This document shows positions 16,157-39,450 of a stretch of DNA of 50,469 nt, in pieces. This DNA comes from a virus: the IMG/VR virus record IMGVR_UViG_3300004883_000001, positions 1-50,469 of that record; one strand, written 5' to 3'. Every line of letters starts with the position of its first letter. Within the stretch, counting starts at the first letter, position 1. Position numbers and translations under genes: made by a program. The notes under the pieces were generated by a model. That model was not told where the DNA came from. It saw nothing but the letters and a program-made list of their open reading frames with translations, and made no database searches.

Positions 16157-16218
16157 GTATAAATCATTGTTATTACTTGTTGAAGACCTTGTTTAAGGGG
16201 CGGTGTGTGTGTCACGTA

Positions 16219-16670: not shown

Positions 16671-16672
16671 TT

Positions 16673-16683
16673 TAATCTATCAT
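16673..16683 (+). promoter_or_regulatory. 11-mer TAATCTATCAT, copy 1
   Basis: Exact match, 47 nt upstream of ATG 16730. Confidence 0.6.
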
Positions 16684-16729
16684 TAGGTTGAACACGTAAC
16701 TTGAACTGATAAACCGAGGGCTTAGGCTA

Positions 16730-17050
16730 ATGGCCAGACCGAATAAAAGAATACGCCAAGCAAGGGCAAAAGCACGTAGTAGGCGCATGAATGAGGCCGC
16801 CACACGTCACGCCAACGCAGAGGCTATTCCTAACGTGAGGTCCAATGTGTCATCATGGCCAAGAGTGCCAAAGTTTGGCGGTGTAGGTTATACAAGCGGG
16901 GGCGATAGTGCCAGCTTTGGGCAACGTGACATGAATGTCATTGCGGCTAAACGTCTGGACTATGCAGACCCGTCACTATTGGCTTATGGCAAACTTTCGC
17001 CAGAGCTGAGAAAAATAGTTGACAAGAAACGCGAAAGCGTAGTAAGTTAG
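16730..17050 (+). CDS. Hypothetical basic early protein
   Basis: 106 aa with an Arg/Lys-rich N-terminus; GAGGG lies about 12 nt upstream. It is the only ORF of at least 60 aa in the 2.3-kb control region, so it may not be real. Confidence 0.4.
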   Translation: MARPNKRIRQARAKARSRRMNEAATRHANAEAIPNVRSNVSSWPRVPKFGGVGYTSGGDSASFGQRDMNVIAAKRLDYADPSLLAYGKLSPELRKIVDKKRESVVS

Positions 17051-17492
17051 CTTAAGACCTGTTAAATCAGGCAAGACCAGAATATCGGTCTTCACATAAA
17101 GACGCGCTAGGCAATAGTCTATAATGCGGCGTCACTTGGCGAGATAACACTTGCGAGTATGGTATGCTTCCCAACCACATCGGGCGGGGGCGGTCCTGTA
17201 AACCTCATATGCAAGCGATAACAGTTTCCCACACGCTATAGGGTGCAAGTCCCGCGTGGTTAGTAGAAGTGGACTTCTAAAGTAGGGTATTGCGTACCCA
17301 TTTGCAATGCTTTAGTAGTGAGCGAGGGTTTTAGCAGGCCTTTGATGCAAGTATGTAACAAGCGTTACCGCGTCCCGTCTATGGAAACTGAATTAATGAA
17401 TTGACTTAACAGTCACGTCATACGTTATCGTATGGCCAACTTGTTACGCCCCTTTGATATGTGAAAAGGCTATGGCTTCGAACCCGCCTTAG

Positions 17493-17503
17493 TAATCTAT
17501 CAT
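17493..17503 (+). promoter_or_regulatory. 11-mer TAATCTATCAT, copy 2
   Basis: Exact match, 103 nt upstream of small ORF 17606. It is followed by a 10-bp inverted repeat (17530-39 / 17581-90). Confidence 0.6.
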
Positions 17504-17605
17504 AGGCCAGCCGCTTGCGAGTTGTTGTGACTGTTATAGTGAGGCAATCGTTTTCCCCTTCCCTTTGCGCGGTTGTCTCTCTATAACAGTTATGAAGGGG
17601 TTACT

Positions 17606-17707
17606 ATGTTTGACCACATTTTCTTATACTACACACACAAGGCAACTCACGCGACAAGCGATAGTGAGGCTTTAAACTTCTACATAGAGGGGAATAAATA
17701 TGCATAA
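17606..17707 (+). CDS. Possible 33-aa ORF
   Basis: ATG preceded by GAAGGGG. It overlaps the next small ORF (ATGCATAA). Below the track threshold. Confidence 0.3.
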   Translation: MFDHIFLYYTHKATHATSDSEALNFYIEGNKYA

Positions 17708-17786
17708 AGACCGCTGGTTCGACTGGCAAACGCTAGTCGTCGTCATTATAAGCGGGCTCGTTCTCGGTTTCTCGGCGGTGCTATAA
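17700..17786 (+). CDS. Possible 28-aa single-TM peptide
   Basis: MHKDRWFDWQTLVVVIISGLVLGFSAVL with AGAGGGG upstream. Confidence 0.3.
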   Translation: MHKDRWFDWQTLVVVIISGLVLGFSAVL

Positions 17787-17922
17787 TGGTCCGTTTAATC
17801 TTTCAACTAATTGGATTGTATATCGTATGCAATCTTTTCAACATTCTGTGGGGACGGTCCCCGTAGGATAAATCGGCCAACTGTAGGCAATCAAGTCTAT
17901 GGCCAACCATGAAATGAGGAGG

Positions 17923-17933
17923 TAATCTATCAT
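17923..17933 (+). promoter_or_regulatory. 11-mer TAATCTATCAT, copy 3
   Basis: Exact match lying between SD GAGGAGG and the start codon. Its last two bases are the AT of ATG 17932. Confidence 0.6.
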
Positions 17934-18495
17934 GGCTACTACTAAAACTAAAAAGCCTGTCACTAAAACTGAGGCAGGCGGTAACGGTGTCACTATGACA
18001 CAAGTTAACACAGCTATCAAGTCTATGGTGAAAGCTTCCCAAGCTTTCGGTGTCGCTGCTGCGTCGGCTGCTGTCTTGGCTTTAATGCATTGCCAACAAC
18101 ACGGTGACGCGACTGGACTGCAACGCCTATACGCTGCCTTAGGTGAGACTGGTGTTCGCCTAGGCCCTATCCGTCAGAAGGCTCTGATGGCTTGGCTGCA
18201 GGTTTATAGCCCCGTCCGGAAAAATAACAAGTCAGGCGACTTTGGCCTTATCAAGGCTACAGCCCCTAACTATGTCGCGTTTGACACCGACGAAGCGGAA
18301 GCTAACCCGTTTCTCGACTTCATTCCCGACAGTACTCGCGGCCCCGTTATGCAATCGAATGTTAAGATTGCCAAACGTATCGCTTCTATGGTCACTAAAG
18401 ACTATGGTGACGCATGGGAAGGTGCTGCTCTGAACGTTGACGCTGTTATGGCAGAGGTTCGTCGCCAGCTTACTCCAACGGCTGATGGCGCTTAA
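17932..18495 (+). CDS. Hypothetical early protein
   Basis: 187 aa with a strong SD (GAGGAGG, 9-nt spacing) and a Lys/Thr-rich N-terminus. Confidence 0.7.
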   Translation: MATTKTKKPVTKTEAGGNGVTMTQVNTAIKSMVKASQAFGVAAASAAVLALMHCQQHGDATGLQRLYAALGETGVRLGPIRQKALMAWLQVYSPVRKNNKSGDFGLIKATAPNYVAFDTDEAEANPFLDFIPDSTRGPVMQSNVKIAKRIASMVTKDYGDAWEGAALNVDAVMAEVRRQLTPTADGA

Positions 18496-18787
18496 CCTCC
18501 CAAAGCTGGTTGAGGACTACTATGTGTGGTCTATAGCTTATTACCGTCAGGGGCGTTCGCTCGCCTCTGATAACATGTTTGACACATGCTGTAAGATATT
18601 GCTTGCAAACTATTCCAAGACACCAGACAGTTTTAAAAAGCTGACCACTAAATCGGATTTGAAATGCGGTACTGGTATGACGTTAACATATGAAAACCTC
18701 TACAACTCTGTAGAAGCTGACGTGTGCGACGCTGTATCTCACCGTTTAGAGAATGACAGGGAGTGGCCAGCCGAGTTGAATTACTAA
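18485..18787 (+). CDS. Hypothetical protein
   Basis: Track ORF 18437..18787. The internal ATG at 18485 overlaps the upstream stop by 11 nt. Its stop TAA is the start of 11-mer copy 4. Confidence 0.55.
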   Translation: MALNLPKLVEDYYVWSIAYYRQGRSLASDNMFDTCCKILLANYSKTPDSFKKLTTKSDLKCGTGMTLTYENLYNSVEADVCDAVSHRLENDREWPAELNY

Positions 18788-18795
18788 TCTATCAT
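18785..18795 (+). promoter_or_regulatory. 11-mer TAATCTATCAT, copy 4
   Basis: Exact match; its TAA is the stop codon of ORF 18485..18787. It shares the 18-mer CTAATCTATCATCAACA with copy 7. Confidence 0.6.
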
Positions 18796-18888
18796 CAACA
18801 GCAGGCCGCTTATTTGACGTAAGTAGGTTTGCAAACAACCTCGTAAGCTTGACGCTTGCGGGGTATTTTTATGGAAAGGAGTCCAGTC

Positions 18889-19026
18889 ATGCTTGATGTA
18901 ATGCTGTCTTCTGGAGAGGTTATCACACTTATCGCTGCATGGGGTGTGGTTATATATTTATTGATGTGCCTTATACTACTTATAGTGGGTATGTGGGTCA
19001 TAGGCTCGGAGATTAACCGAGGTTGA
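18889..19026 (+). CDS. 45-aa single-TM membrane peptide
   Basis: AAAGGAG lies 7 nt upstream of the ATG. Sequence: MLDVMLSSGEVITLIAAWGVVIYLLMCLILLIVGMWVIGSEINRG. Below the track threshold; the antisense track ORF 18810..19001 is judged a shadow. Confidence 0.5.
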   Translation: MLDVMLSSGEVITLIAAWGVVIYLLMCLILLIVGMWVIGSEINRG

Positions 19027-19109
19027 AATGTCCGTGAGCAACGCTACGTAGTGCGGGCCGACGCTGTATTCGGTCACATACAGCAGCTATTTAATTAATG
19101 GAGAGTGTT

Positions 19110-19370
19110 ATGCTTATCGAAATCGCCCTTATGTGTGCCTACGTATTCATAGGTATAGTTACTTTAGCTGTCTTACGGTCTTGCGAAGGTATTCAAGACT
19201 TCAACGAAGAAGATGTAGGATTGAACTTCTCTGTTGTTCTTGCGTGGCCTGTAGCATGGTTCTTTGGTTCAATACTGGCCCTCTACTGGGCATCCATGAA
19301 AGGCTCTGACCTTTTAATCAAGGTTTTTGAGGCCTTAAAGCCCAGTAAATCTGAAAAGTCTTCCCGCTAA
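19110..19370 (+). CDS. 2-TM membrane protein, paralogue A
   Basis: Track ORF 19098..19370. I prefer ATG 19110 because GGAGAG then serves as the SD. A 19-nt leader TTAATTAATGGAGAGTGTT is identical to that of the next gene. Confidence 0.65.
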   Translation: MLIEIALMCAYVFIGIVTLAVLRSCEGIQDFNEEDVGLNFSVVLAWPVAWFFGSILALYWASMKGSDLLIKVFEALKPSKSEKSSR

Positions 19371-19424
19371 CCCTTTGAAATCATTGATTAAACAAGGGTA
19401 ATTAGTTAATTAATGGAGAGTGTT

Positions 19425-19664
19425 GTGACTACAGTTATAATTCTAGGGGTCTACCTACTAATCGGTGTAGTCTTTCTTGGTGTTGTGCAATTCCTCTCGG
19501 AGGATGTCCTACGACAAAAAGAGGATACGTTATTAGCGATAATAGTATTAATAGGATGGCCTCTAGTTGCACTGGTCGTTGCAGGAGAAGCTCTCTATAA
19601 TTTACTCTTTCTATTATCTACCTATGTCACTGAAATCATCAAGAAAATCAGTACATCTCGCTAA
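19425..19664 (+). CDS. 2-TM membrane protein, paralogue B
   Basis: Track ORF 19413..19664. GTG 19425 follows the same 19-nt leader and the topology is the same (TM - acidic loop - TM with a WP motif). Its stop TAA starts 11-mer copy 5. Confidence 0.65.
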   Translation: MTTVIILGVYLLIGVVFLGVVQFLSEDVLRQKEDTLLAIIVLIGWPLVALVVAGEALYNLLFLLSTYVTEIIKKISTSR

Positions 19665-19672
19665 TCTATCAT
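19662..19672 (+). promoter_or_regulatory. 11-mer TAATCTATCAT, copy 5
   Basis: Exact match; its TAA is the stop of 19425..19664. GGAGG lies 4 nt downstream. Confidence 0.6.
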
Positions 19673-19688
19673 CATTTGGAGGACCACA

Positions 19689-19817
19689 GTGGCACCTTTT
19701 AGAACATATCCGCGTCGGCGTCGGCGTTGGCTATCGCAGCTCAACAACGTTAACGTAGAGAGTCCTGGAGAACGGGTTCTCTTCTGCCGTGCGAAAAAAC
19801 GACGGAGAGTGAAATGA
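19689..19817 (+). CDS. Possible 42-aa Arg-rich peptide
   Basis: GGAGG-N7-GTG start. Sequence: MAPFRTYPRRRRRWLSQLNNVNVESPGERVLFCRAKKRRRVK. It has an ATGA overlap with the next gene. Confidence 0.35.
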   Translation: MAPFRTYPRRRRRWLSQLNNVNVESPGERVLFCRAKKRRRVK

Positions 19818-20410
19818 CTGAACAGCTTATTATCCGAGGCGACACGGTCCGCTTAAAGACAGAAAGAAGACATATCAAGGTCACTCGCGTGTACGGACGG
19901 CGTGTTGCCAGTTGTTTCGATGAAGGTGGCCTGGTATTCGACGGGTACTACATCACCTCTGGTATGACGGTATCTGAAAAGTCGGTGTCAACGGCTATCC
20001 GCGTAAAGAAAGGTGAGTCTGAACAGCTTACTACAGATACGGCCCAGGAAAACGGCGAGTATGTCATGTTCAACGATAACAATGTTGTGCAGGCTAATCG
20101 CTGGGTGCTGGATGAAGGGTCTTGGTATTACTACAGCGATGCGGAGAAGAGATGGAAACGTGTCGCTAGAAGGGCGTATCCTTTAAAGGTCTTATATGCC
20201 TCTCCTACTCCCCTTGGATTTAAGCCTTTCGACCTTTTGGAGGGCAAACCTTACAGGCCTTTTGTCACATGGCACGGGTTTCACTTCCCTTCTGCACACT
20301 ATAAACCTATGAAGGAGAAATCCTGTCGTCTATTGCAGGTCTGTGCAGCCTATGAGCAATGGGTGAAAGACGGTTGCCCTAGGCCTCCCACCCCTGCCCC
20401 GTTTAAGTAA
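19814..20410 (+). CDS. Hypothetical protein
   Basis: 198 aa with GGAGAG upstream. The stop context is TAATCTTTT. Confidence 0.7.
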   Translation: MTEQLIIRGDTVRLKTERRHIKVTRVYGRRVASCFDEGGLVFDGYYITSGMTVSEKSVSTAIRVKKGESEQLTTDTAQENGEYVMFNDNNVVQANRWVLDEGSWYYYSDAEKRWKRVARRAYPLKVLYASPTPLGFKPFDLLEGKPYRPFVTWHGFHFPSAHYKPMKEKSCRLLQVCAAYEQWVKDGCPRPPTPAPFK

Positions 20411-20437
20411 TCTTTTAAATAAACTCTCTGGAGAAAT

Positions 20438-20800
20438 ATGATGAATAATCTATCATGGCTGCTATACCTCGCTGAGGTTTGCGGTAACCTTAAAATCGTA
20501 TCGGAAGCCTTTTTTTGGGTTGGAGCGATTCTCTTAGCTGTAGCAGGAATATGTTTAGGTCCTGTCGCTGAAATGGACTCTGATGACGAGATGTGGGGTA
20601 GAGGGATTAGTGTAGCTAAAAAATCTATCCCTCTATTAGTAGTAGGAGTAGTCCTCACAGTCTTCGTCCCTTCGAAAACAACAGTTTACCTTATCGCTGC
20701 CTCTGAAATGGGCGAAGAGGCTATGAACACCGAGACAGCACAGAAGATAGGCGACTATCTAGACGTGCTTCTGGACGAACTAACAGGTGTGGCTGAGTAA
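20438..20800 (+). CDS. Membrane protein (about 3 TM)
   Basis: 120 aa with GGAG upstream, hydrophobic segments and an acidic C-terminus. Confidence 0.7.
   Translation: MMNNLSWLLYLAEVCGNLKIVSEAFFWVGAILLAVAGICLGPVAEMDSDDEMWGRGISVAKKSIPLLVVGVVLTVFVPSKTTVYLIAASEMGEEAMNTETAQKIGDYLDVLLDELTGVAE
20446..20456 (+). promoter_or_regulatory. 11-mer TAATCTATCAT, copy 6
   Basis: Exact match, inside codons 3-7 of ORF 20438 (read as N-N-L-S-W). It is followed by GGCT, as in copy 3. Confidence 0.55.
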
Positions 20801-21034
20801 TCGTTCCAGGACAGCCGCGTCCTGTTCCATATTAGTGACGGACATGTTACCTGCTGTGTCATGTGACCTCTGAGTCGTCAATTTTCGAACGGCCTCGCGG
20901 CTGTCACCCTTTTCATCTCAGTTCCGTGGGCGGTTTGCTGACGACCTCTTCGCGTACACTCATAAAACCTCGTTTAAGCATCTTTAATGCATCCTTCCTT
21001 GACTGGACCTGATGCGCGCCTCTATGCGACCATC

Positions 21035-21062
21035 TTGAGTGAGAAGTAACTGGCGCTATAAA
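21035..21062 (+). promoter_or_regulatory. sigma70-like promoter candidate (TTGAGT-N16-TATAAA)
   Basis: Located in the 340-nt ORF-free gap upstream of ORF 21140. Confidence 0.3.
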
Positions 21063-21121
21063 AGTTAGATATTGTGAATGTACTAACTATACTCCTGTTC
21101 AATCGGGAGGCTGAGACCATC

Positions 21122-21132
21122 TAATCTATCAT
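21122..21132 (+). promoter_or_regulatory. 11-mer TAATCTATCAT, copy 7
   Basis: Exact match, 8 nt upstream of ATG 21140 and 23 nt upstream of ATG 21155. Confidence 0.6.
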
Positions 21133-21139
21133 CAACAAC

Positions 21140-22192
21140 ATGGAGGGCACGGAGATGCCTACTTATCCAGAAATAACTGACCCTCAAACTACAGCATTTC
21201 GTGCCCTGTTTGATAAACGTTCTGTTAAAAGTCGGAAGACGTTCTACGCGAACTATAAAGTCAAACACCTTAACAATGCTTTGAAGGGCAGCATTTCTTA
21301 CTTCCGTAATGACACGGTTTTCTCTGGCCTCGCTATTGAAGGTAAAATCGGTCCAGCGTATGCCGCCCAGTTGTCTCGCTCCTGTAGTGGTAAGTATTCT
21401 GTACTAAGACAGAGAGGGGATTTCACAAAGAAGGTTCAAGAGCTTCGATTGTTTTTGTCTATGTGCAACACTGACTATAACCAAGAGCTTCTGAACCACT
21501 TAGTGGAGTCTACGAGAGGTTCTTTCGCCCCTAGAACTATCGGGTACCCAAACTGTTGCGGGGCGTACCTCTACGATGGCCTTAAGCTCCCGTATGAACG
21601 GATTAACATGGACGCCAAAACCTTGAAAGAGTGGGCGGCGGGTATATCTCAGGTTGGCTCTGGTCCTGGACGTTTCATTGTTTTACCTGAACATGTTGCA
21701 GACGAGTACGGCCAACCGTTTGAAGACATAGGTTTCGTTAGGTTCCTTACCTACGACAACGTCGTCTACTTCTTCCGTGCTAAGCTCAGGGACCACCATG
21801 CAGCCCGTGTCAAGAAACAGAAGTTGACCTTCGTTCCTAAGTTAAAAAAGCTTCAAGAGGATGCAAGAGAAGTCGAGCTCAACAGCTCAGCTTTCCCTAA
21901 GATTCCGAGCCAATCTATCAAAGGCTGCTTGAGTATTTACTCTGGTTTTAGTTCTAACAGTAAGTTAGGGCCTAGGTCTTTTACATCCTCTCTGGCTCCC
22001 GTGGATATGTTGCTCTTAAGGGAGCTTAACACCGACAAACAGATAACTAAACATTATCGCCACGTGGAAGCGTTAGGGTTTAAACCTCTCTATGATGGGT
22101 TTGAGCCTTTCCAGAACTCGGTACACTCTGACAGTAACCGTTGGCTGTTGCCTATGTACCGCATCAACCCCTTCTACGAAGAGGACCGATAG
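21140..22192 (+). CDS. Hypothetical protein
   Basis: 350 aa. The alternative start ATG 21155 has GGAGG/GGAG upstream. No motif recognised. Confidence 0.7.
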   Translation: MEGTEMPTYPEITDPQTTAFRALFDKRSVKSRKTFYANYKVKHLNNALKGSISYFRNDTVFSGLAIEGKIGPAYAAQLSRSCSGKYSVLRQRGDFTKKVQELRLFLSMCNTDYNQELLNHLVESTRGSFAPRTIGYPNCCGAYLYDGLKLPYERINMDAKTLKEWAAGISQVGSGPGRFIVLPEHVADEYGQPFEDIGFVRFLTYDNVVYFFRAKLRDHHAARVKKQKLTFVPKLKKLQEDAREVELNSSAFPKIPSQSIKGCLSIYSGFSSNSKLGPRSFTSSLAPVDMLLLRELNTDKQITKHYRHVEALGFKPLYDGFEPFQNSVHSDSNRWLLPMYRINPFYEEDR

Positions 22193-22193
22193 C

Positions 22194-22727
22194 ATGGCAA
22201 AGAAAGCCCCTAAGGTTGAGACTCCTTTTGTCTGGAAGCCTTTAACTATCTGTTTGAAGTATCCTGCTACTCCTATCACTTTTACAGAGCTATCGGAACA
22301 GCAGCAGGAGCTATCCGCTCAACGCCCTATAATGTCGTTTGAAGAGGATTTCTCAACGGTAAATATTGAGTCTGATGGTAAGAACCCTACATATATTGAG
22401 ATTGATGACATACCTCCTCTTGAAGGTTCGGTGGATGAAGGAGGTTTTTCTAAGGGAAGCCTTTGTCAGTACATCTTTATGTCGGAGGACGAGGAGTTAA
22501 TGATTGCCTTCCTTACGTCTCCTAGCGCTGTTCGTGCAGGTATGCTACGTACACAGGAGTTTGACGACGGAAGTCGCCTATACTTCATAGGCTTCCAAGA
22601 CACTACCGAGGCTACATACTTCTATTGGGAGATGGCTTATGAGCCAGGACTAATGGAACGTGTCACCTTTAACGGTCACCGAGTTATCTGCGGGGAAGAG
22701 TTAATCTCCCGTGGGTCAGCTATCTAA
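22194..22727 (+). CDS. Hypothetical acidic protein
   Basis: Track ORF 22092..22727. ATG 22194 starts 2 nt after the upstream stop with GAGGA upstream. Its stop TAA starts 11-mer copy 8. Confidence 0.65.
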   Translation: MAKKAPKVETPFVWKPLTICLKYPATPITFTELSEQQQELSAQRPIMSFEEDFSTVNIESDGKNPTYIEIDDIPPLEGSVDEGGFSKGSLCQYIFMSEDEELMIAFLTSPSAVRAGMLRTQEFDDGSRLYFIGFQDTTEATYFYWEMAYEPGLMERVTFNGHRVICGEELISRGSAI

Positions 22728-22735
22728 TCTATCAT
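22725..22735 (+). promoter_or_regulatory. 11-mer TAATCTATCAT, copy 8
   Basis: Exact match; its TAA is the stop of 22194..22727. It lies 19 nt upstream of ATG 22754. Confidence 0.6.
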
Positions 22736-22753
22736 CATCTGCGAGGTCATAAC

Positions 22754-23218
22754 ATGACAACATCTCTTAACCCCACAATCATCCCTTCGGACAGGCTCCT
22801 ACAGGCTGGTGACATCTTTGCTGTGTATGGTACGTTACGTAAAGGTAACGGTAACTACAAGTACACTGGTATGCGTACAGGCGCTAAGTTCCTTGGAGAG
22901 GAGACCGTACAGGGCACCTTGTATCACCTAGGAGGCTTCCCAGGGCTTACTCAAGAGGCTTCTCCTGTTCCAGTGACCGTAGAGGTATATAAACTTCTAG
23001 ACCCCGCCTTAGGGGTCCGCTTAGACCGTCTGGAGGGCTATAAACCTGCTAAGCCGGAGGGTAGTATGTATATCCGTGCTAAGACGGTGACCAACAGTGG
23101 TCGTGAGGCGTTTATCTACTACTACAACTCTCTTCGTGTTCCTGCCCGTAGGGTAATCCTGTCAGGTGACTGGCATAACCGTGGTGAGATAGGGGCTCTT
23201 GAGAAGGCCGCCTCTTAA
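22754..23218 (+). CDS. Gamma-glutamyl cyclotransferase-like protein (AIG2/GGACT family)
   Basis: 154 aa. The family pattern is present: IFAVYGTLRKGNGNY ... GTLYHLGGFPGL ... VEVYKL ... LDRLEGY. Confidence 0.8.
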   Translation: MTTSLNPTIIPSDRLLQAGDIFAVYGTLRKGNGNYKYTGMRTGAKFLGEETVQGTLYHLGGFPGLTQEASPVPVTVEVYKLLDPALGVRLDRLEGYKPAKPEGSMYIRAKTVTNSGREAFIYYYNSLRVPARRVILSGDWHNRGEIGALEKAAS

Positions 23219-23296
23219 AAGGGTATATATCAACCCCCACAGGCGACAAGTCTATTATACCACATATTTTCAATTTGTCAAGCGAAAAATAAAAAA

Positions 23297-24142: not shown

Positions 24143-24150
24143 TCTATCAT
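24140..24150 (+). promoter_or_regulatory. 11-mer TAATCTATCAT, copy 9
   Basis: Exact match; its TAA is the stop of 23297..24142. It lies 28 nt upstream of ATG 24178. Confidence 0.6.
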
Positions 24151-24177
24151 TACACGTCACATTTCTAGGAGATTATT

Positions 24178-25293
24178 ATGTGCGGACACGTCGGAGTTGC
24201 AGGAGATTTAACTGCAGCAGCAGCAAGAGCCTTTAAGGATATGCTGTATATGGACGCCCTTAGGGGCCGTCACGGTACAGGTATATTTACAGTGCCTTTC
24301 CGAGGAGACAGGATGTTGAATGGCGGTAACATCGTCAAAGCCCCCTTCTCGGCTGAGGTGTGTCTTCAAAACAAAGCTTTTGAAAAGGCTGCCGAGGACC
24401 CCACCTCTGCGGTCATCATGGGACATAACCGTCACGCTACCATCGGCCAACACATCCAAGGGAACACCCACCCTTTCCGTCAAGGAGACATAGTCGGAGC
24501 ACATAACGGCACCGTATCCGCAGGTAACCGTACCTTAAAAGTCAAAGGCTCTTTTGGCACGGACTCTGAGAAAATCATGGCATCTATCAGTCAGTACGGT
24601 ATTCAAGATACTATCAAGGAAATGATTCCTTGCTCTCAAGGTGCTTGGGCGTTTGTCTGGTATGATTTTCATTCCAATGAGATTAACTTCCTTAGGAACG
24701 AGTACCGTCCTTTCTTCTACGGGTTTTCTAAAGACCGTGGTATTATGTACTGGGCCAGCGAAGCTCATATACTTCGTGCTGCTTGTGCTCGCCGCGGAGC
24801 TGACCTTGATAAGGTCTATGAGCTGCCTGTGGACACTCACTTGCGTTGGACTGTCCCTGGGGTAGGAGAGGTCTTCGGCAAGGAAACGCGGAGTAAGTGT
24901 GTCGGAAAAAAGCGGCCAGCTCTTCCAGCTTACAAAGGCAATACCAGCAGGGTTCGGAATACGGGGACTCGGAATGGGACGACCACTGGTTTTGGTGTGC
25001 GTATTCCCTCTGACTTCTCTGTGGAGCTGCAAGACTATACCTTATTCGACAACTCTGATGTAGTCGAGCTGTTCCAAACCAAGAAACAGTGTATTTGGTG
25101 TCACGAAGAGGTGACTGCTGCCGACATCAAAAACAAGGGAGGGGCTGCTGTTGTAGCCAGAAACAGTGTTGTGTGTGCTAAGCATGCTAAACTACCTATC
25201 TTCCAAGCCACTCTCAAGGCTCGTATATCCAACGAGATAGCGAGCAGTAAGAGTAAGAGTAAAACTGCAAAGAGCTGTTCCGCAGCTAACTGA
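24178..25293 (+). CDS. Class-II (Ntn, N-terminal Cys) glutamine amidotransferase-domain protein with a C-terminal Cys/His cluster
   Basis: 371 aa. It starts MCGHVGVAG (Cys2 nucleophile) and contains GHNRHATIG ... HPF ... GAHNGTV ... GTDSEKI. The C-terminus has CIWCHEE...VCAKH. AGGAG SD. Confidence 0.75.
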   Translation: MCGHVGVAGDLTAAAARAFKDMLYMDALRGRHGTGIFTVPFRGDRMLNGGNIVKAPFSAEVCLQNKAFEKAAEDPTSAVIMGHNRHATIGQHIQGNTHPFRQGDIVGAHNGTVSAGNRTLKVKGSFGTDSEKIMASISQYGIQDTIKEMIPCSQGAWAFVWYDFHSNEINFLRNEYRPFFYGFSKDRGIMYWASEAHILRAACARRGADLDKVYELPVDTHLRWTVPGVGEVFGKETRSKCVGKKRPALPAYKGNTSRVRNTGTRNGTTTGFGVRIPSDFSVELQDYTLFDNSDVVELFQTKKQCIWCHEEVTAADIKNKGGAAVVARNSVVCAKHAKLPIFQATLKARISNEIASSKSKSKTAKSCSAAN

Positions 25294-25331
25294 GACCAAC
25301 CACCCATCAGCAAACTAACAAGGAGTTCAAT

Positions 25332-26144
25332 ATGTCTGCTGCAATTCTTATCGGGTCTGACCCCGAAGTTTTCCTTCGAAACACTTCTACAGGTGCTTTC
25401 GCTAGTGCCCACGGTGTAATCCCTGGGTCCAAGGAAGAACCTTTCACGGTGCCTCTAGGTGCTGTCCAAGTGGACGGAATGGCTTGTGAGTTCAACACCG
25501 ACCCTGCGAAGACTCGGAAGGAGTTCATCGACAATGTCACGGGAGTGTTTAAAACGTTGGACGAGATGCTCCCTGATAATCTATCATTGGTTCCTGGGGT
25601 TCCTGTCGCACATTTCTCGGAAGAGGTGTTCGCTGCACAGCCTGCTGAGGCTCTGGAGCTTGGATGTGAGCCTGACTACGACGCCTACACAGGAAGCGAG
25701 AACCCTCGACCTAACGCCCACAACAAGCCTATGCGTACCGCTGCTGGTCACGTTCATATCGGCTTCAAGGATACCGAGGACCCTCTTGGTATGTTGCATA
25801 TGATGGAGTGTTGTGACTTGGTGAAGATGCTGGACGTCTTCCTCGGTTTATATAGCTTGACCTTCGACACTGACACTGAGCGTCGCTCTCTGTACGGTAA
25901 AGCTGGTGCCTTCCGCCCTAAACCTTATGGGGTCGAGTACCGCGTGCTGTCCAATGCATGGCTGGTCTCGGAGGAGCTGATTGGTGATGTCTACGACATA
26001 GCCACCCTCACAACGGAACTGTACCTTGAAGGTGCCCGTCTAGACCAGGACACGTATGACCGTGCCCGTATGGCTATCAACACCAGCAACGTTAAGGTCG
26101 GCGCTAAAATCCTCGCAGATGCGAAAAAGTTTTTTCAAATCTAA
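25332..26144 (+). CDS. COOH-NH2 ligase, phiEco32-like type 2 (glutamine-synthetase/GCS2-like fold)
   Basis: 270 aa with IGSDPEVFL ... VDGMACEFN ... AAGHVHIGF ... YGVEYRVLSNAW, the motif set I recall for the Pfam COOH-NH2_lig family. AAGGAG SD. Confidence 0.7.
   Translation: MSAAILIGSDPEVFLRNTSTGAFASAHGVIPGSKEEPFTVPLGAVQVDGMACEFNTDPAKTRKEFIDNVTGVFKTLDEMLPDNLSLVPGVPVAHFSEEVFAAQPAEALELGCEPDYDAYTGSENPRPNAHNKPMRTAAGHVHIGFKDTEDPLGMLHMMECCDLVKMLDVFLGLYSLTFDTDTERRSLYGKAGAFRPKPYGVEYRVLSNAWLVSEELIGDVYDIATLTTELYLEGARLDQDTYDRARMAINTSNVKVGAKILADAKKFFQI
25577..25587 (+). promoter_or_regulatory. 11-mer TAATCTATCAT, copy 10
   Basis: Exact match inside ORF 25332..26144, read as D-N-L-S-L. Confidence 0.55.
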
Positions 26145-26171
26145 TCTAACTTAACCCTCTAGGAGATTGAT

Positions 26172-26999
26172 ATGGCTTTAAAAGCTAAAGTCGTTAAGCT
26201 GCCTAAATCCAAGTCCCCTGACTTTGGGTCGACTAAAGACTGGTCGCTGCGATTACATCAAACCTTGGTCTGGTATAAGGACCAACCTTTCTATGTTCGG
26301 GATGTCAAAAGTAAAGACACTCCTAAGACGGCTGAGCTTAGACGGGCCTACCGAGCAGCGGTAGACACTTATCAAAATGCTGCTTCCGAAGCGGAACATA
26401 TTAAAGGCCGTGAGATTGCTCGACGTCTTGACCGTGAGCTGAAAGCTTACATGAAAAGTGCTAAAGCTTCTTCGGTTGCCAAAGGTCAGATATTCCCTTT
26501 GAAGGCGGACGGTAAGGAAGTTGACATAGGAAAAAATAACAGCTCTCACTCTGTAACCAGTTTAGACCTAAGGCTCCGACCTATGGGTTTTTATAACCGA
26601 AATCTGGAAGACAGTAGGATTGCTACTTATGTTTCACGTCTAGCTCGGCAGCAGAGCCGGCACGGGCTAAGCTCATCAAACACCCTTGCTAGCAGCGTAG
26701 GTAGGGGACGTTACGCGGACTTCCATCCTGCGGACAAGGAGTTTCTTACAAGTCTTTACGGGATTTACCCTTCTCTAGAAGAGTGTTTAGACACCCTCTT
26801 CCCAATGGAAGGGACTAACTCCATGGCATTCTGCAGGAAATACGCTATACAGGTCGATGCTGTGGGCCACGTCGTCCTTTTCTACCGAACCAAAATGGTG
26901 GGCATGTCAAGCGACGAAGGTAAGACCTTCAAGCTTCTCGGGCGTCACACCTACCTTAAAGAAGACCTCACAGATACAGGAGTTACCATTGACTCGTAA
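26172..26999 (+). CDS. Hypothetical protein embedded in the amidoligase operon
   Basis: 275 aa with an AGGAG SD. No motif recognised. It is preceded by the degenerate 11-mer TAATCTAACTT (26142). Confidence 0.7.
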   Translation: MALKAKVVKLPKSKSPDFGSTKDWSLRLHQTLVWYKDQPFYVRDVKSKDTPKTAELRRAYRAAVDTYQNAASEAEHIKGREIARRLDRELKAYMKSAKASSVAKGQIFPLKADGKEVDIGKNNSSHSVTSLDLRLRPMGFYNRNLEDSRIATYVSRLARQQSRHGLSSSNTLASSVGRGRYADFHPADKEFLTSLYGIYPSLEECLDTLFPMEGTNSMAFCRKYAIQVDAVGHVVLFYRTKMVGMSSDEGKTFKLLGRHTYLKEDLTDTGVTIDS

Positions 27000-27048
27000 T
27001 AGTAAAAACCCTCTAAACTCAGCGGAGAAGCTGGTAGCTGCAAACCCT

Positions 27049-28059
27049 ATGAAGACCACTGTACGGGAGTATTTTGGACCTTTCAGGAGTGAGACGGACG
27101 GTCGTCGTATCGGTATTGAAGTCGAGGTGGAAACCGCTAATGACCATTACCCCAACGCTGGACGTGTTAACGATACCTCTAAATACTGGCTCGCCACTAT
27201 TGACGGGTCTCTTCGCAACGCTAAGGGGACTGGTGCAGGTGGACAGGAGTACATCATCAAAAACTCTATCCCTTTTGGAGAGGCCGAACCAGCGTTAAAG
27301 GAATTGGAAACCCTTTTGAAAGGAGCTAGGTCTAAGGTCCGTAAATCTAACCGAACCTCTGTCCACGTCCATGTTAACGTACAGGACATGACCCTTACCG
27401 AGCTGATGACTTTCTTCTGTCTCTACTATACGGTGGAGCCTATCCTATGTCGTTACAACGGGTTTGAACGGGAGAACAATCTGTTCGCTTTACAGGCCAT
27501 CACCTCCGAGACTATCTTAGCTAATCTATCATATTTCCTTCGAAACCGACGTTTCAGCAACAAGACGAAATACTCTGCATTGAATTTTATGACCTTGGGT
27601 ACCGGTTCCCTCGGTACTGTCGAGTTCCGTGCAGGAGCTGGAATCGAGAAGAGCCCTATGGAGGTTCTACCTTGGATTGCGCTTATAGAGTCCTTGTTCG
27701 ACTCTTTAGGGGCGTTCAAAAAACCTGAGGACGTCCTTTACGCTATCTCTGAACGCGGCCCTCTTCGTTTCCTTCAAAAGTACGTACCCTACATTTTCGA
27801 GGTAGGGACTAAAGTGTTTGAATTGGACGAGCTAGACCACTTGATTATGCAGTCCACTCGTAACGCTCAAGGCTTGGCCTACGAGATTGATTGGGGCGAC
27901 TACAAACCTACCAAAAAGAAGGCTGGTAGTAAAACTTCTTTAACACCAGTTTACGGCGCTAGAGCCAATGCCGCCCCACCGCCACAGCCACGGCCGAGGA
28001 CCGTCGCTGCCCCTCATCTAGGCGTAGCTGCCGAACTCGCTGAATTTGACTGGGACTAA
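27049..28059 (+). CDS. Amidoligase (Amidoligase_2-type, GS-like fold)
   Basis: Track ORF 26857..28059; ATG 27049 is the first start after the upstream stop. Motifs: RRIGIEVEVE ... TIDGSL ... TSVHVHVNV ... GTVEFRAGAG. The C-terminus is Pro/Ala-rich. Confidence 0.7.
   Translation: MKTTVREYFGPFRSETDGRRIGIEVEVETANDHYPNAGRVNDTSKYWLATIDGSLRNAKGTGAGGQEYIIKNSIPFGEAEPALKELETLLKGARSKVRKSNRTSVHVHVNVQDMTLTELMTFFCLYYTVEPILCRYNGFERENNLFALQAITSETILANLSYFLRNRRFSNKTKYSALNFMTLGTGSLGTVEFRAGAGIEKSPMEVLPWIALIESLFDSLGAFKKPEDVLYAISERGPLRFLQKYVPYIFEVGTKVFELDELDHLIMQSTRNAQGLAYEIDWGDYKPTKKKAGSKTSLTPVYGARANAAPPPQPRPRTVAAPHLGVAAELAEFDWD
27522..27532 (+). promoter_or_regulatory. 11-mer TAATCTATCAT, copy 11
   Basis: Exact match inside ORF 27049..28059, read as A-N-L-S-Y. 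Confidence 0.55.
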
Positions 28060-28096
28060 ACTTTTAACACCACTTTGACATTATAAGGAGAACCAC

Positions 28097-29224
28097 ATGT
28101 CAACCAAAAAGAAACGCACAACAATTTTCGTGCACCCTTACAACGGAGCTTCGGAGGGTGCTAAAACCCTTACCGCAGCCTTAGGAGGGAAACGTATCCT
28201 CACTGGAGGACGCTCAGCGTTCAAATATTCTAAGGGCAAGACTGTCATCAACTGGGGGTCGTCGGAGTATCACGTAGGCAAGGACGTCCCTATGCTCAAC
28301 CCGCCTGCTGCGGTAGCTAAAGCTTCTAACAAGCTGACATTCTTTCAGTCTTTGAAGGGCAGCAGCACACGCATCGTACCGTTCACAACAGACGTGGAAG
28401 AGGTGCAGGAATGGTTGAACGCGGGCTCTGTTGTGTGTGCCCGAACTAAATTAACTGGACATTCTGGCGAAGGTTTGGTGATTTTAGGTGATAAAGAGGT
28501 TGACATTGCCTCTGCGAAGCTGTATACTAAGTACGTGAAGAAAGCTCGTGAGTATCGAGTCCACGTAGTTGACGGTAAAGTCATCCGTGTTCAGAAGAAG
28601 ATTCTTCGGCCCGAGCTGACTGAACGTATCCGAGACCCTAAGGATGAGTTCTCTAAGGATGACGTCAACTGGGAAGTCCGTAACCACGGCAACGGTTTCG
28701 TATACGTCACTGACGGAGTCGAAGAAGATTGTCCTAAAGACGTTCTATCACAGGCTCGTTCTGCTATATGCCGTACAGGTCTTGACTTCGGAGCTGTGGA
28801 CGTAATCTGGAGCAACAAGAAGCAGCAAGCTTTTGTTCTTGAGATTAATTGTGCCCCTGGCCTCGAAGGAGGCACTACTACTGCCTATGTAGATGCTTTC
28901 CAAGCCCTCATTGCGAACGGCGTCCCTACTAAAAAAAAGACCTTAAAGGTTGAAAAACGTCCCTGGGATACGGTTAACATAGTCAACGTGGAGCTGTGGG
29001 GGGGCAGAGCATGCCTACGAGCTGTCATAGACCATGCCAGAGGGGTCAGAAACGACACCGACTGGTGTAATTGGTCAGAGACAGGGGAAGCTATGTTCCC
29101 TTACAGCGAGGACGACGCTACAAGATTAGAAGCCGACTTAGAAGAGGCTATGGGAAATCCGCCTTCTAAATGGGTTCAGATGTTGGCTCAAGATGTCTGC
29201 GAATACCAAGGCATCAACTACTAA
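28097..29224 (+). CDS. ATP-grasp ligase
   Basis: 375 aa with KLYTKYVKKAREYRVHVVDGKVIRVQKK ... GAVDVIW ... FVLEINCAPGLEG (E-x-N metal site). AAGGAG SD. Confidence 0.8.
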   Translation: MSTKKKRTTIFVHPYNGASEGAKTLTAALGGKRILTGGRSAFKYSKGKTVINWGSSEYHVGKDVPMLNPPAAVAKASNKLTFFQSLKGSSTRIVPFTTDVEEVQEWLNAGSVVCARTKLTGHSGEGLVILGDKEVDIASAKLYTKYVKKAREYRVHVVDGKVIRVQKKILRPELTERIRDPKDEFSKDDVNWEVRNHGNGFVYVTDGVEEDCPKDVLSQARSAICRTGLDFGAVDVIWSNKKQQAFVLEINCAPGLEGGTTTAYVDAFQALIANGVPTKKKTLKVEKRPWDTVNIVNVELWGGRACLRAVIDHARGVRNDTDWCNWSETGEAMFPYSEDDATRLEADLEEAMGNPPSKWVQMLAQDVCEYQGINY

Positions 29225-29230
29225 GAATAT

Positions 29231-29318
29231 GTGCGAGTATGCAAGTGGTTAAAGCACGCAGTCTGTAAAACTGCTCTCGTATTGGGGTACGCTGGTTCGA
29301 ATCCAGCCTCGCACACCA
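29231..29318 (+). tRNA. tRNA-Tyr (anticodon GTA), class II with long variable arm, CCA encoded
   Basis: Acceptor GTGCGAG/CTCGCAC; 3-bp D stem TGC/GCA; anticodon stem GCAGT/ACTGC with loop CTGTAAA; variable arm TCTCGTATTGGGGTAC; T arm GCTGG-TTCGAAT-CCAGC; discriminator A followed by CCA. Confidence 0.9.
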
Positions 29319-29332
29319 ATAACATACCTTGC

Positions 29333-29369
29333 ACAGGGGTGGTACAATCTATCATCCCTGTGTCTTTTT
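29333..29369 (+). terminator. Hairpin plus T-tract after the tRNA (possible intrinsic terminator) carrying 11-mer copy 12 in its loop
   Basis: CACAGGG (29333-39) pairs with CCCTGTG (29356-62), with a 16-nt loop, then TCTTTTT. Confidence 0.4.
29345..29355 (+). promoter_or_regulatory. 11-mer variant CAATCTATCAT, copy 12
   Basis: 10/11 match (AATCTATCAT is exact), 41 nt upstream of ATG 29396. Confidence 0.55.
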
Positions 29370-29395
29370 CAACTATAATAATAAGGAGGACATGG

Positions 29396-29593
29396 ATGCG
29401 TTGCCATATTTGCGACCGTAACATAGCCCACCCCTCAAAACACCCTATTTCAGGTGAGTACGAACCCTGCAATGTTTGCTTGGAAGCTGCTCTACCTAAC
29501 GCCCACTTTCTCGATACTGAGATGGGCAACCTTTTAACCGATGAAGACTTGTCGACGCTCGAAGAATTCGAGGTATCTCCCGTTGACGATTAA
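29396..29593 (+). CDS. 65-aa zinc-ribbon protein with an acidic tail
   Basis: AAGGAGG SD. MRCHICDR...EPCNVCLE has a CxxC-N17-CxxC arrangement. The track ORF 29231..29593 begins inside the tRNA, so the internal ATG is preferred. Confidence 0.6.
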   Translation: MRCHICDRNIAHPSKHPISGEYEPCNVCLEAALPNAHFLDTEMGNLLTDEDLSTLEEFEVSPVDD

Positions 29594-31292
29594 AATCGGT
29601 AAAGGCCCCTGTGGGTCCTGCGGGAGCAGCGATGCCAAGATGACCTATGAAGATGGGCATACGCATTGTTTCTCCTGTGGGGCCCATACAGGTCCTATTA
29701 ATACCACTGGCGATAAGCTCCGCCCAACCTATAATCAAGAAGAAGAAGAGAGCCCTATTACTCCAAACCCCTTACCACCCATCCCTAGTGCATCTGACTA
29801 CGTAGCACTAAAGGACCGAGGCATATCCGCTGAGACTGCTAAAGTCTACGGCGTCACCAACAACTTAGGGGAAGGTATGACAAAACATATCTACCCTTAC
29901 TTCGACTCGCATGGGACCTACGTTGCAGCGAAGTTACGAAGCCACACGAAGAAATTCAAGTGGGCAGGAAATACCAAGACTGCGGCCTTATTCGGTCAGT
30001 CTAATTTCCCGCCTAACTCTGCTAAGCAAATCACCATTACGGAGGGTGAGTGTGACGCTATGGCAGCCTATCAGATGCAGGGCAGTAAATACCCTGTAGT
30101 GTCTGTACACAGTGCCAGCTCTGCTGTTAAAAACTGTGCTGAGAACTTCAAGTATTTGGACTCCTTCGAGACCATCGTCATCTGTTTCGATGCTGATGAA
30201 GGTAAGTTCAACCCCATGACAGGTCAAACTGGGTATCCTGGGCAGGAAGCCGCTGATGCGGTAGCACGTCTTTTCGCCATTGGAAAAGTACGTGTGGTCA
30301 CCTTAAATAAACATAAAGACGCCAATGATTATCTCTTAGAGGGAGATGGCGGTGCCTTTATGCAGGAGTGGTGGAATGCCCCAACCTTTACCCCTACTGG
30401 TCTCGTAGCTGCCAAGGACATGTGGGACAAAATCAAGGAACCTAAGAGACACGATTCAATCGCGTATCCGTGGTCTGTCCTACAAACTCTCACCTACGGT
30501 ATCCGTCTATCGGAGATGGTAACCGTTACAGCGGAGACAGGTATTGGTAAGACTACTATCCTCAAAGAGGTTCAGCATCATATCCTCTCTACTGTGGAAG
30601 ATGCAGGGGTGGGTATACTCCATCTCGAAGAGCCTAATGACGATACCGCCTTAGGTCTTATGTCCATTACTGCCAACAAACCTCTACATCTGCCAGATGT
30701 CCGAGAGGAGGTAGAGACAGAGGAGCTGCGGGAGTACTTCGACCAGACGTTGAACAACGACCGAGTAATCATGTTCGACCACTTTGGCTCTAACTCAATT
30801 GACATCATTATCTCTGCGATTCGCTATATGGTCAACATGGGATGTAAGTACATCTTCCTAGACCATCTCAGCATCCTTGTAAGTGACCAGAGTGGCGATG
30901 AACGTAAACAACTGGACGAGGCTGCCACAAAGCTTAAAACCCTATGTATGGAGCTTAACGTCGCCCTCATCTGTGTTATCCATCAGAACAGAAATGGACA
31001 AATCCGAGGCACCGCTGGTGTGGAGCAGCTCAGTAACATCGTTATTAAGATGAACCGCGACAAGAAAGCCAAGGACCCATTTGTGCGTAACGTCACTACC
31101 ATTGAGGTGGAGAAGAACCGCTTCTGTGGGCGGACAGGGCCTGCTGGCTTCCTCTTCTACGAGAATGAGACAGGGCGGCTTAGAGAATTAGACGACCACG
31201 AGACTCAACGCTTTCAGGAGGGTGTCGCCCCTGAGGGTTTCGTGTTCGAGAACGACAAACCAAAAGAAGAAGGATGGGACGATGAGCCTTAA
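29541..31292 (+). CDS. Bifunctional primase-helicase (T7 gp4-like)
   Basis: Zn finger CGSCGSS...HCFSCG; TOPRIM ITITEGECDAMAAYQ and FDADEGK; helicase Walker A TAETGIGKTT and Walker B IFLDHL. In-frame TTG 29583 with GAGGT upstream is an alternative start. Confidence 0.9.
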   Translation: MKTCRRSKNSRYLPLTIKIGKGPCGSCGSSDAKMTYEDGHTHCFSCGAHTGPINTTGDKLRPTYNQEEEESPITPNPLPPIPSASDYVALKDRGISAETAKVYGVTNNLGEGMTKHIYPYFDSHGTYVAAKLRSHTKKFKWAGNTKTAALFGQSNFPPNSAKQITITEGECDAMAAYQMQGSKYPVVSVHSASSAVKNCAENFKYLDSFETIVICFDADEGKFNPMTGQTGYPGQEAADAVARLFAIGKVRVVTLNKHKDANDYLLEGDGGAFMQEWWNAPTFTPTGLVAAKDMWDKIKEPKRHDSIAYPWSVLQTLTYGIRLSEMVTVTAETGIGKTTILKEVQHHILSTVEDAGVGILHLEEPNDDTALGLMSITANKPLHLPDVREEVETEELREYFDQTLNNDRVIMFDHFGSNSIDIIISAIRYMVNMGCKYIFLDHLSILVSDQSGDERKQLDEAATKLKTLCMELNVALICVIHQNRNGQIRGTAGVEQLSNIVIKMNRDKKAKDPFVRNVTTIEVEKNRFCGRTGPAGFLFYENETGRLRELDDHETQRFQEGVAPEGFVFENDKPKEEGWDDEP

Positions 31293-31336
31293 TTTTCTTA
31301 CGTACGAACAGGCAGTAGAGACTTCGTGTCTCGCCC

Positions 31337-31774
31337 ATGTTGACTGAACTACTGCTCCTGCTACAAACTGAACACACGTGTCTCTCCAAGACTATTTTTG
31401 GGGAGGCCCGTTCGGAGCCAATAGTATCTCAACTGGACGTAGCACTGACAGTGTTGAATAGGGTCAACAGCCCGCTGTTCCCCGACACTATCTGTGGGGT
31501 AACAAACCAGCCCTACCAGTACACGTCCCGTAATGAGTTCGACACCAACTACTGGTTCACCGAGAGAGTGTTTGTCGGCTTCGAGACGACCCTTGGTGAG
31601 AGGAAAGCTAAGGAGAAGTCCCAAATCCTAGCCACCTTTGCTATGGAGAACTATAAGGAGCTTACCAATCCTATAATCTATCATTATCACGCGGCTGGTC
31701 ACAACCCTGTATGGGCTAGTGAGCTGACCTATTCCCACACTAGCGGGACCCACCTATTTTATACAGGATATTAA
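31337..31774 (+). CDS. SleB-type cell-wall hydrolase domain protein
   Basis: 145 aa. TIFGEARSEPIVSQLDVALTVLNRVNSPLFPDTICGVTNQPYQYTS fits the Hydrolase_2 (SleB) core. Confidence 0.7.
   Translation: MLTELLLLLQTEHTCLSKTIFGEARSEPIVSQLDVALTVLNRVNSPLFPDTICGVTNQPYQYTSRNEFDTNYWFTERVFVGFETTLGERKAKEKSQILATFAMENYKELTNPIIYHYHAAGHNPVWASELTYSHTSGTHLFYTGY
31674..31684 (+). promoter_or_regulatory. 11-mer TAATCTATCAT, copy 13
   Basis: Exact match inside ORF 31337..31774, read as I-I-Y-H-Y. It lies 92 nt upstream of ATG 31776 and is the last copy on the arm. Confidence 0.55.
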
Positions 31775-31775
31775 C

Positions 31776-37489: not shown

Positions 37490-37490
37490 A

Positions 37491-39442: not shown

Positions 39443-39450
39443 GAGTACAG

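Follow-up and report, generated by a model that had tools for sequence, protein, structure and literature searches.

A one-strand repeated motif in the early and replication arm of an uncultured phage, compared with the nick-associated motifs of LUZ24-type phages

The motif and the described nick-associated motifs

Phage T5 has been known for about 50 years to carry localized nicks in its DNA, and phiKMV-like and LUZ24-like phages were later found to have them as well. The subject of this report is a short repeated motif in a 50,469-nucleotide stretch of virus DNA (IMG/VR record IMGVR_UViG_3300004883_000001, positions 1 to 50,469; hereafter the window), in which twelve exact copies of the 11-mer TAATCTATCAT and one single-mismatch variant, CAATCTATCAT, all lie on the + strand of one genome arm that is syntenic with the left arm of phage LUZ24. 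The motif is genuine, far from random and conserved in a large clade of uncultured phages, and we judge it an even call whether it is the nick-associated motif of LUZ24-type phages (Bruynoghevirus) in a new sequence version, a reading argued by analogy with the homologous arm.

In the LUZ24-like phage tf, 14 copies of TACTRTGMC lie on the top strand only and all carry ligatable nicks at TACT/RTGMC, with 11 of the 14 in the genome's left half and one-mismatch variants confined to the same strand (PMC3517423). In LUZ24, PaP3 and MR299-2 the copies number 8-9, lie at comparable positions and differ slightly in their main sequence, and the tf authors proposed that nickase and site co-evolve (PMC3517423). 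In phage Rembedalsseter one strand carries 13 copies of WACTRTGAC, and at each of them nanopore coverage drops in a strand-specific way; the word is enriched in 61 related phages, where it is one-sided, often at gene beginnings and mostly on the coding strand, and in Bruynogheviruses 12% of the copies fall outside coding sequence, which equals background (PMC11780129). The nicks of T5 and of phiKMV-like phages are likewise site- and strand-specific interruptions in virion DNA biased to one genome half (PMC3517423), whereas their consensus sequences are unrelated to the motif of the window (R/GCGCRGG; CGACNNNNNCCTA/CTCCGG), their sites are fewer, their genome context is not homologous, and the phiKMV-like nicks are on the non-coding strand. 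Roles proposed in the literature for such nicks include packaging, ejection, recombination and expression.

A pattern search of the window finds the motif between 16673 and 31684 at a ratio of 13:0 (+ against - strand) at up to one mismatch, CAATCTATCAT being the sole one-mismatch variant, while dinucleotide shuffles at the same tolerance average 0.58 matches and do not exceed 4. A preliminary description of this DNA had reported 13 same-strand copies and no reverse complement by eye, and had proposed this both-strand count against shuffled controls; its positions are exact, and the count bears it out. Allowing two mismatches adds nine matches, seven on the + and two on the - strand, which by themselves are not above chance. 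In an exhaustive k-mer count TAATCTATCAT is the top repeated 8- to 12-mer of the window, and the same count returned no second dispersed repeated word of these lengths in the window, for example before the structural genes. The core TCTATCA occurs 18 times on the + strand, all within 16676-39681, and twice on the - strand (8857 and 45249, both in the leftward arms), with no - strand occurrence inside the rightward arm. One-strandedness is strict, and the opposite strand is avoided. The arm and the individual copies are as follows, with open reading frames abbreviated ORF; copies 1 to 11 and 13 are exact.

Rightward arm: 16203..39765, + strand; carries all 13 copies and is syntenic with the LUZ24 left arm
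Copy 1, TAATCTATCAT: 16673..16683, + strand; intergenic, with the ATG at 16730 lying 47 nucleotides downstream
Copy 2: 17493..17503, + strand; within the ORF-poor stretch 17051-17931
Copy 3: 17923..17933, + strand; lies between the GGAGG of a gp2-like early gene and its ATG (17932), filling the spacer
Copy 4: 18785..18795, + strand; its TAA is the stop of ORF 18437-18787; 43 nucleotides upstream of a terminator-like hairpin (18838-18864)
Copy 5: 19662..19672, + strand; its TAA is the stop of ORF 19413-19664; a GTG (19689) lies 17 nucleotides downstream
Copy 6: 20446..20456, + strand; codons 3-6 of ORF 20438-20800
Copy 7: 21122..21132, + strand; intergenic, with an ATG (21155) 23 nucleotides downstream
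Copy 8: 22725..22735, + strand; its TAA is the stop of ORF 22092-22727; the GGACT gene (22754) begins 19 nucleotides downstream
Copy 9: 24140..24150, + strand; its TAA serves as stop codon for the peptidase C26 gene; the GATase gene (24178) begins 28 nucleotides downstream
Copy 10: 25577..25587, + strand; within the COOH-NH2 ligase gene (25332-26144)
Copy 11: 27522..27532, + strand; within the amidoligase gene (26989-28059)
Copy 12, CAATCTATCAT: 29345..29355, + strand; in the loop of a terminator-like hairpin (29331-29363), right after the gene for the tyrosine transfer RNA (tRNA-Tyr, 29231-29318)
Copy 13: 31674..31684, + strand; within the cell-wall hydrolase gene (31337-31774)
Weaker copy GTATCTATCAT: 36602..36612, + strand; retains the family core ATCTATCAT (ATCTATCAY)
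Weaker copy ACATCTATCAC: 39678..39688, + strand; retains the family core ATCTATCAC (ATCTATCAY) and is the last before the convergent junction
Weaker copy CAATCTATCAA: 21911..21921, + strand; doubtful

Spacing of the copies is more even than random (coefficient of variation 0.47, P = 0.005), and the gaps widen from left to right, from 0.4-0.9 kb up to 2.3 kb (gap against order, Spearman 0.84, P = 0.0006), with the weaker copies at 36602 and 39678 extending the series to the end of the rightward arm. Seven of the 13 copies end within 50 nucleotides upstream of a start codon, against a background of 7.4% (P = 1.4e-5). With our own gene calls, the earlier assignments of four copies as the stop codon of the preceding ORF (18785, 19662, 22725, 24140) and of four others to the inside of ORFs (20446 in codons 3-6, 25577, 27522 and 31674) are confirmed, and the 18-mer that copies 4 and 7 had been said to share is corrected to the 17 nucleotides of CTAATCTATCATCAACA. 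Conservation outside the 11-mer is limited to a frequent C at position -1. Copy 2 is preceded by a tRNA T-arm-like sequence, GGCTTCGAACCCGCC, and lies in an 880-nucleotide stretch (17051-17931) without a convincing ORF, of which 17060-17560 folds no better than shuffled sequence (z = -1.4). The tRNA-Tyr has the anticodon GTA, and the hairpin with copy 12 in its loop adjoins it directly. An Rfam search matched only the tRNA, with no match at the motif or in the ORF-poor stretch.

The motif in metagenomic relatives and in LUZ24

Metagenomic relatives of the window's primase-helicase run into thousands, at 55-84% identity and with many on 48-52 kb contigs, and in the related phages of about 50 kb the family core TCTATCA(Y) recurs at 6-16 copies per 14-22 kb, on the same strand only. 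A k-mer search returns the same core as the top strand-specific word in syntenic contigs, with a characteristic word in each:

L015, L016 and L019: AATCTATCA(T/C), 8-12 copies, one strand
L017: AATCTATCA, 5-6 copies, one strand
L020: RATCTATCAT, 11 copies, one strand
L018: CG-TCTATCA, 7 copies; TCTATCA overall 16, one strand
L099: (ACG/TAA)TCTATCA, 6 copies, one strand

Counted on the sense and the other strand, TCTATCA stands at 12:0 in L019, 16:0 in L018, 11:0 in L020, 6:0 in L017 and 6:0 in L099, and about 2 opposite-strand occurrences in 133 kb of family sequence compare with roughly 8 expected by our estimate. The bases 5' of the core vary by phage (AA-, RA-, CG- or ACG- before TCTATCA). 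In more distant members either the copies are fewer (L091-L093, L081) or the word is the variant G-CTATCA-T (L033, L042). Two contigs with the same amidoligase cluster, L043 (1321-15753) and L057, carry instead the one-strand word TACTGTAC(T), at 6-9 sense against 0-2 other-strand occurrences; this word is close to the tf word TACTGTGAC, and CT[A/G]T is common to all variants. Presence of the motif tracks those relatives whose T7-type primase-helicase is closely related, as is their family A DNA polymerase (PolA), and the cultured Zobellviridae phage ICP2, whose structural arm is related, has neither the amidoligase cluster nor a comparable motif.

Positional conservation in related genomes, which the preliminary description had proposed as a check, was found in part, positions otherwise drifting. 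In L095, whose helicase is 84% identical, copy 13 is present at the orthologous position of the hydrolase gene, where it forms the longest identical run in surroundings of about 60% identity; in L096, a 76% relative, TAATCTATCAC stands at the position orthologous to copy 12. A conserved early gene has the motif in codons 3-6 in both the window (copy 6) and L019, and in L020 it has it in the untranslated spacer before the ATG; this shift implies that selection acts on a DNA or RNA word and not on the protein. Thinning from left to right is kept in the window, L018, L019 and L020. With a crude gene caller, 51 of 82 family copies fall within same-strand coding sequence and 23 are intergenic, in genomes where about 7% is non-coding; family copies are enriched between genes, yet most are mid-gene (in L018, 12 of 16 lie within called genes). 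Four copies in relatives also occupy the spacer between a Shine-Dalgarno sequence (SD) and its ATG. L099 has all its copies in the rightward arm. L017 has a full copy, cTAATCTATCAC, on the same strand as the others but past the convergent junction, inside a leftward endolysin gene; no further copies against the local gene direction were found, L099, L091-L093 and L177 having none or being uninformative. Short tandem arrays in the early regions of two contigs (L030, 3935-4060, and L051, 16156-16370, with units GCATTAGC and TTCGGCTGCT) are unrelated to the dispersed motif.

By tblastn and BLASTP, LUZ24 counterparts occur in the + arm of the window in largely the same order and at 26-42% identity. 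LUZ24 gp2, a "conserved early protein", matches the ORF at 17932 (E = 7e-5), and identities are 39-40% for the gp16 COOH-NH2 ligase, 32% for the gp19 amidotransferase (GATase) and 35% for the RimK-like gp21; further counterparts are the gp18 amidoligase, the gp24 primase-helicase, a split PolA and the gp43 endonuclease. LUZ24 gp22 resembles the GGACT gene of the window, the BLAST match being to relatives (L043, L057, L042 and L093) and not to the window itself. The structural arm of LUZ24 is not homologous to that of the window.

Applied to LUZ24, our k-mer method ranks GTACTATGAC first among strand-specific words. The LUZ24 nick motif has nine copies on the + strand and none on the - strand, eight of the nine in the left arm; three are intergenic, one contains a start codon and one lies just past a start codon, and the copy at 29861 is inside the leftward structural gene gp50, like the endolysin copy of L017. 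The two motifs are alike in having 9-14 copies per genome of about 45-50 kb on one strand, with near-variants likewise; in their place in the early, amidoligase and replication arm, an arm that is syntenic as well as homologous and along which their density falls; in lying mostly on the coding strand, frequently where genes begin, and occasionally in the arm of opposite direction; and in varying slightly between related phages around a shared CTAT-A-C/Y. Aligned as TA-CTAT-GA-C against the family's AT-CTAT-CA-Y, they are identical at 6 of 9 positions when Y is C, a similarity with a chance probability that we estimate at about 0.01 per register and about 0.05 allowing shifts, and the core CTATCAY is one position away from the CTATGAC of LUZ24. 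They differ in consensus, ATCTATCAY in the window against WACTRTGAC or TACTRTGMC (TACTATGAC in LUZ24 and PaP3), and TACTRTGMC itself shows no enrichment in a k-mer count of the window. The window version is also an exact 11-mer, is more enriched at gene boundaries and accompanies a Zobellviridae-like structural arm, and nicks have been mapped in LUZ24-type phages and are predicted in the window, a metagenomic assembly.

Nick site or another signal

In the reading that we favour, the motif would be recognised by an activity that nicks at a specific site and on a specific strand, so that the + strand of packaged DNA would contain single-strand interruptions that can be ligated; the cut at TACT/RTGMC in tf, taken as a model, predicts a nick at the T-A step marked in TAATCT^ATCAT. 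Nicks at these sites, their exact point and a phage-encoded enzyme are what we infer. We favour this reading because the arm is homologous and syntenic to the LUZ24-type arm, in which one-strand 9-mers have been mapped as nicks. A nick site would account for the one-strandedness, the avoidance of the opposite strand, the copy number, the gradient and the turnover of positions, and likewise for the phage-specific variation of the motif, the mid-gene copies, the copy in a terminator loop, those between SD and ATG, and the L017 endolysin copy. Several observations weigh on the other side. The whole argument for nicks in this uncultured phage is one of analogy; the motif is unlike WACTRTGAC, and the similarity at 6 of 9 positions is only marginally significant. 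Copies in the window are far more closely bound to gene boundaries (the 7 of 13 near start codons, P = 1.4e-5), whereas those of Bruynogheviruses are non-coding at the background frequency of 12%. All copies in the window and in L099 are co-directional with transcription, which a role in transcription or at the RNA level fits equally well, and the copies against the local gene direction come to one, in one relative (L017). Among the candidates considered in the window no nickase could be tied to the motif, since an HNH-like ORF and the gp2-like protein (below) also occur in relatives without it. The clustering at boundaries could be explained by the word itself: beginning with TAA and ending with CAT, it would be accommodated most cheaply as a stop codon, in a spacer or just before an ATG, and the small early genes offer many such places.

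The preliminary description had set out four hypotheses without ranking them, with a promoter in first place by analogy with phiEco32 and a nick site last; the nick site is now the best supported of them, and the promoter has lost ground. As a single-element promoter, which we regard as unlikely, the motif would have a phage factor (a very divergent sigma factor or an RNA polymerase-modifying protein) bring host RNA polymerase to TCTATCAY, with starts a few bases downstream. The window 11-mer matches the phiEco32 element tAATGTAtA at 7 of 9 positions, both are single short AT-rich elements, phiEco32 promoters have their starts 6-8 bp downstream (PMC8948821), and phiEco32 also has a COOH-NH2 ligase-type cluster; the TAAT part behind this likeness, however, is not kept in the relatives (CG-, RA- and ACG-TCTATCA), and phiEco32 has only six promoters, which stand before middle and late genes including structural ones and need the sigma factor gp36. 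A promoter would suit the co-direction of all window copies with genes, the closeness of seven of the 13 to a start codon and the intergenic share in the family (23 of 82 against about 7% non-coding), but most copies in the relatives are mid-gene, one window copy lies in a terminator loop and another just before a terminator, and five copies (one in the window, four in relatives) sit between SD and ATG, where a downstream start would miss the start codon. This last point had been raised for copies 3 and 5 and is correct. No copy precedes any structural or late gene, the leftward arm being headed by a perfect sigma70 promoter, and copy 1 precedes the very first genes of the arm, before an arm-encoded factor would be available. 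The phage-specific 5' part is the pattern of co-evolving pairs of factor and promoter. A search for such a factor agrees with the earlier statement that no recognisable RNA polymerase or sigma gene is present: Pfam and PHROGs gave none in about 80 ORFs, although this is a weak test, because phiEco32 gp36 itself reaches only E = 0.002 against Pfam Sigma70_r2. No ORF of at least 40 amino acids has an RNA_pol match that would point to a single-subunit RNA polymerase, the large unassigned ORFs sitting in the structural arm, and gp36 searched by phmmer against all window ORFs found no homologue.

T4 late promoters (TATAAATA), which are read by gp55 and gp33 with the gp45 clamp, also consist of a single -10-like element without a -35, but no gp55, gp33 or gp45 homologues were detected in the window, and the motif is absent from the late genes. 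T4 late transcription can in vitro be activated from nicks in the non-transcribed strand, a known tie between polar nicking and transcription. Transcription start mapping in LUZ24 by ONT-cappable-seq gave 16 starts, of which 10 are sigma70-like, and revealed no promoter motif specific to the phage (PMC10914365); a special promoter is therefore not needed in the homologous arm. An ordinary sigma70-type reading of the motif itself was rejected, as neither TATCAT nor TAATCT forms a -10 with any conserved -35, and the last base can be C in relatives; a sigma70 promoter scan of the window was not above shuffles (27 found, 23.7 expected).

Two further explanations were considered. As a signal in early and middle transcripts, which seems to us very unlikely, the word would be the site of a ribonuclease or an RNA-binding protein, of phage or host, acting in shut-off, processing or the tuning of translation; T4 RegB, which cuts GGAG in early mRNAs, and RegA are the models. 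The copies are on the sense strand only, in the window they are confined to the rightward transcription unit, many lie in translation initiation regions or right after stop codons, and two follow a tRNA or tRNA-like 3' end, all of which would suit an RNA signal. Yet the copies share no structure, they are as likely to be unpaired as AT-rich control words (P = 0.27), Rfam has no match at them, their distance to start codons is highly variable with most family copies mid-gene, and the L017 copy would be transcribed only by read-through past the convergent junction. Avoidance of the opposite strand, complete in the rightward arm and seen across the family (about 2 against about 8 expected), is not predicted by an RNA signal either. 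A polar DNA signal without a nick, bound by a phage DNA-binding protein or by one-way replication or packaging machinery, is in our view a fairly improbable option; such a signal might, for example, serve priming or helicase loading where the lagging strand of rightward forks is templated, or be a place where genome ejection or packaging pauses. Strict strand polarity, the fairly regular spacing and a density gradient kept in four genomes would go with it, the range of Okazaki fragment lengths covers the spacing of 0.4-2.3 kb, and the motif tracks the closely related T7-type primase-helicase and PolA. Against it, no candidate binding protein was found, we know of no precedent for primase or helicase sites of 7 to 11 nucleotides in T7-type replisomes, and the closest documented analogue in the homologous arm is a nick site. 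Readings as a Chi-like site or an uptake sequence were set aside, the word being AT-rich and its 5' part varying among closely related phages.

If the motif does mark nicks, the phenomenon, described so far in a few cultured phages of Pseudomonas and E. coli, would extend to a large and widespread uncultured clade, and the trait would travel with the early and replication arm and not with the virion module; comparing the versions CTATGAC, CTGTGAC, CTGTACT and CTATCAY together with the few shared genes would then offer a route to the nickase and to the role of the gradient. If it is instead a promoter, it would point to an unrecognised transcription factor in phages without an RNA polymerase of their own. 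A bolder and decidedly improbable proposal is that CTATCAY, TACTRTGAC and TACTGTAC(T) belong to one ancient CT[A/G]T-centred system in the shared early and replication arm, with polar nicks on the non-template strand whose graded density is functional. The gradient could then, for example, pace genome entry, couple entry or replication to early transcription, or seed recombination, and the enzyme would be among the few genes common to all such arms, which would make the nickase directly searchable.

Genome context and candidate enzymes

The ends of the window are identical over 99 nucleotides (1-99 = 50371-50469); the assembly is therefore closed into a circle, with 50,370 unique bases and an arbitrary start point. 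Structural genes occupy the - strand at 3432-15669 and 39841-50311 and include the large terminase (TerL), portal, a tail appendage, an internal virion protein, a beta-helix tail protein and an M15 peptidase. Small early genes begin the + arm, followed by the amidoligase-type cluster and tRNA-Tyr and then by the T7-type primase-helicase, PolA, a Cas4-like nuclease (35542-36441), endonuclease I (36726-37130) and an exonuclease (37440-38231); a deoxynucleoside monophosphate (dNMP) phosphatase and a MazZ-like diphosphohydrolase are also encoded there. The cluster at 22754-29224 (GGACT, peptidase C26, glutamine amidotransferase, phiEco32-type COOH-NH2 ligase, an ORF without assignment, amidoligase and a RimK-like ATP-grasp protein) mostly matches LUZ24 gp16-gp22 and was found in all relatives fetched. 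Among cultured phages the arm has no near-identity DNA match, the closest PolA being 36% identical. The portal is 47-51% identical to those of SIO1-like roseophages and Vibrio phage ICP2 (Zobellviridae). The genome is thus a mosaic of a Zobellviridae-like virion module and a LUZ24-type early and replication module, because the portal is Zobellviridae-like while the + arm matches the LUZ24 left arm.

Two genes were considered as enzyme or reader of the motif and rejected. The 187-amino-acid gp2-like early protein (17932-18495 in the window, 1208-1762 in L094, 28102-28593 in L090) belongs to a large family of 277 clusters at 50% identity, which includes LUZ24 gp2 and ICP2 gp27 and occurs in ICP2 and other relatives without the motif; it has no match in Pfam, in the PDB or by fold, and its structure model is poor (predicted local distance difference test, pLDDT, 57). 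ORF 14594-14890 on the - strand encodes 98 very basic amino acids with an HNH core, DVHHKDGNPKNN, scoring 23.9 bits against HNH_3, just below the cut-off; it sits between the putative small terminase gene and that of TerL, and it is found beside TerL in many related contigs, whether or not they carry the motif. ORF 18437-18787, whose stop codon is supplied by copy 4, consists solely of the N-terminal Ia (NAD+-binding) domain of an NAD+-dependent DNA ligase (PF22745, E = 5.5e-7). It is tempting to speculate that this product modulates the host ligase, which would be relevant if virion DNA is nicked.

The perfect sigma70 consensus promoter at the head of the leftward structural arm (15865..15837, - strand) has a second, equally perfect counterpart at 23281..23254 on the - strand, antisense within the rightward arm, with the GGACT gene on one side and the peptidase C26 gene on the other; both promoters have TTGACA, a spacer of 16-17 nucleotides and a TG-extended TATAAT. 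Near the end of the rightward arm, ORF 39370-39765 encodes the N-terminal domain of a dATP/dGTP diphosphohydrolase (MazZ-like, E = 2e-35), with the dNMP phosphatase-like gene (38617-39222) as its neighbour, and the pair hints at manipulation of the nucleotide pool.

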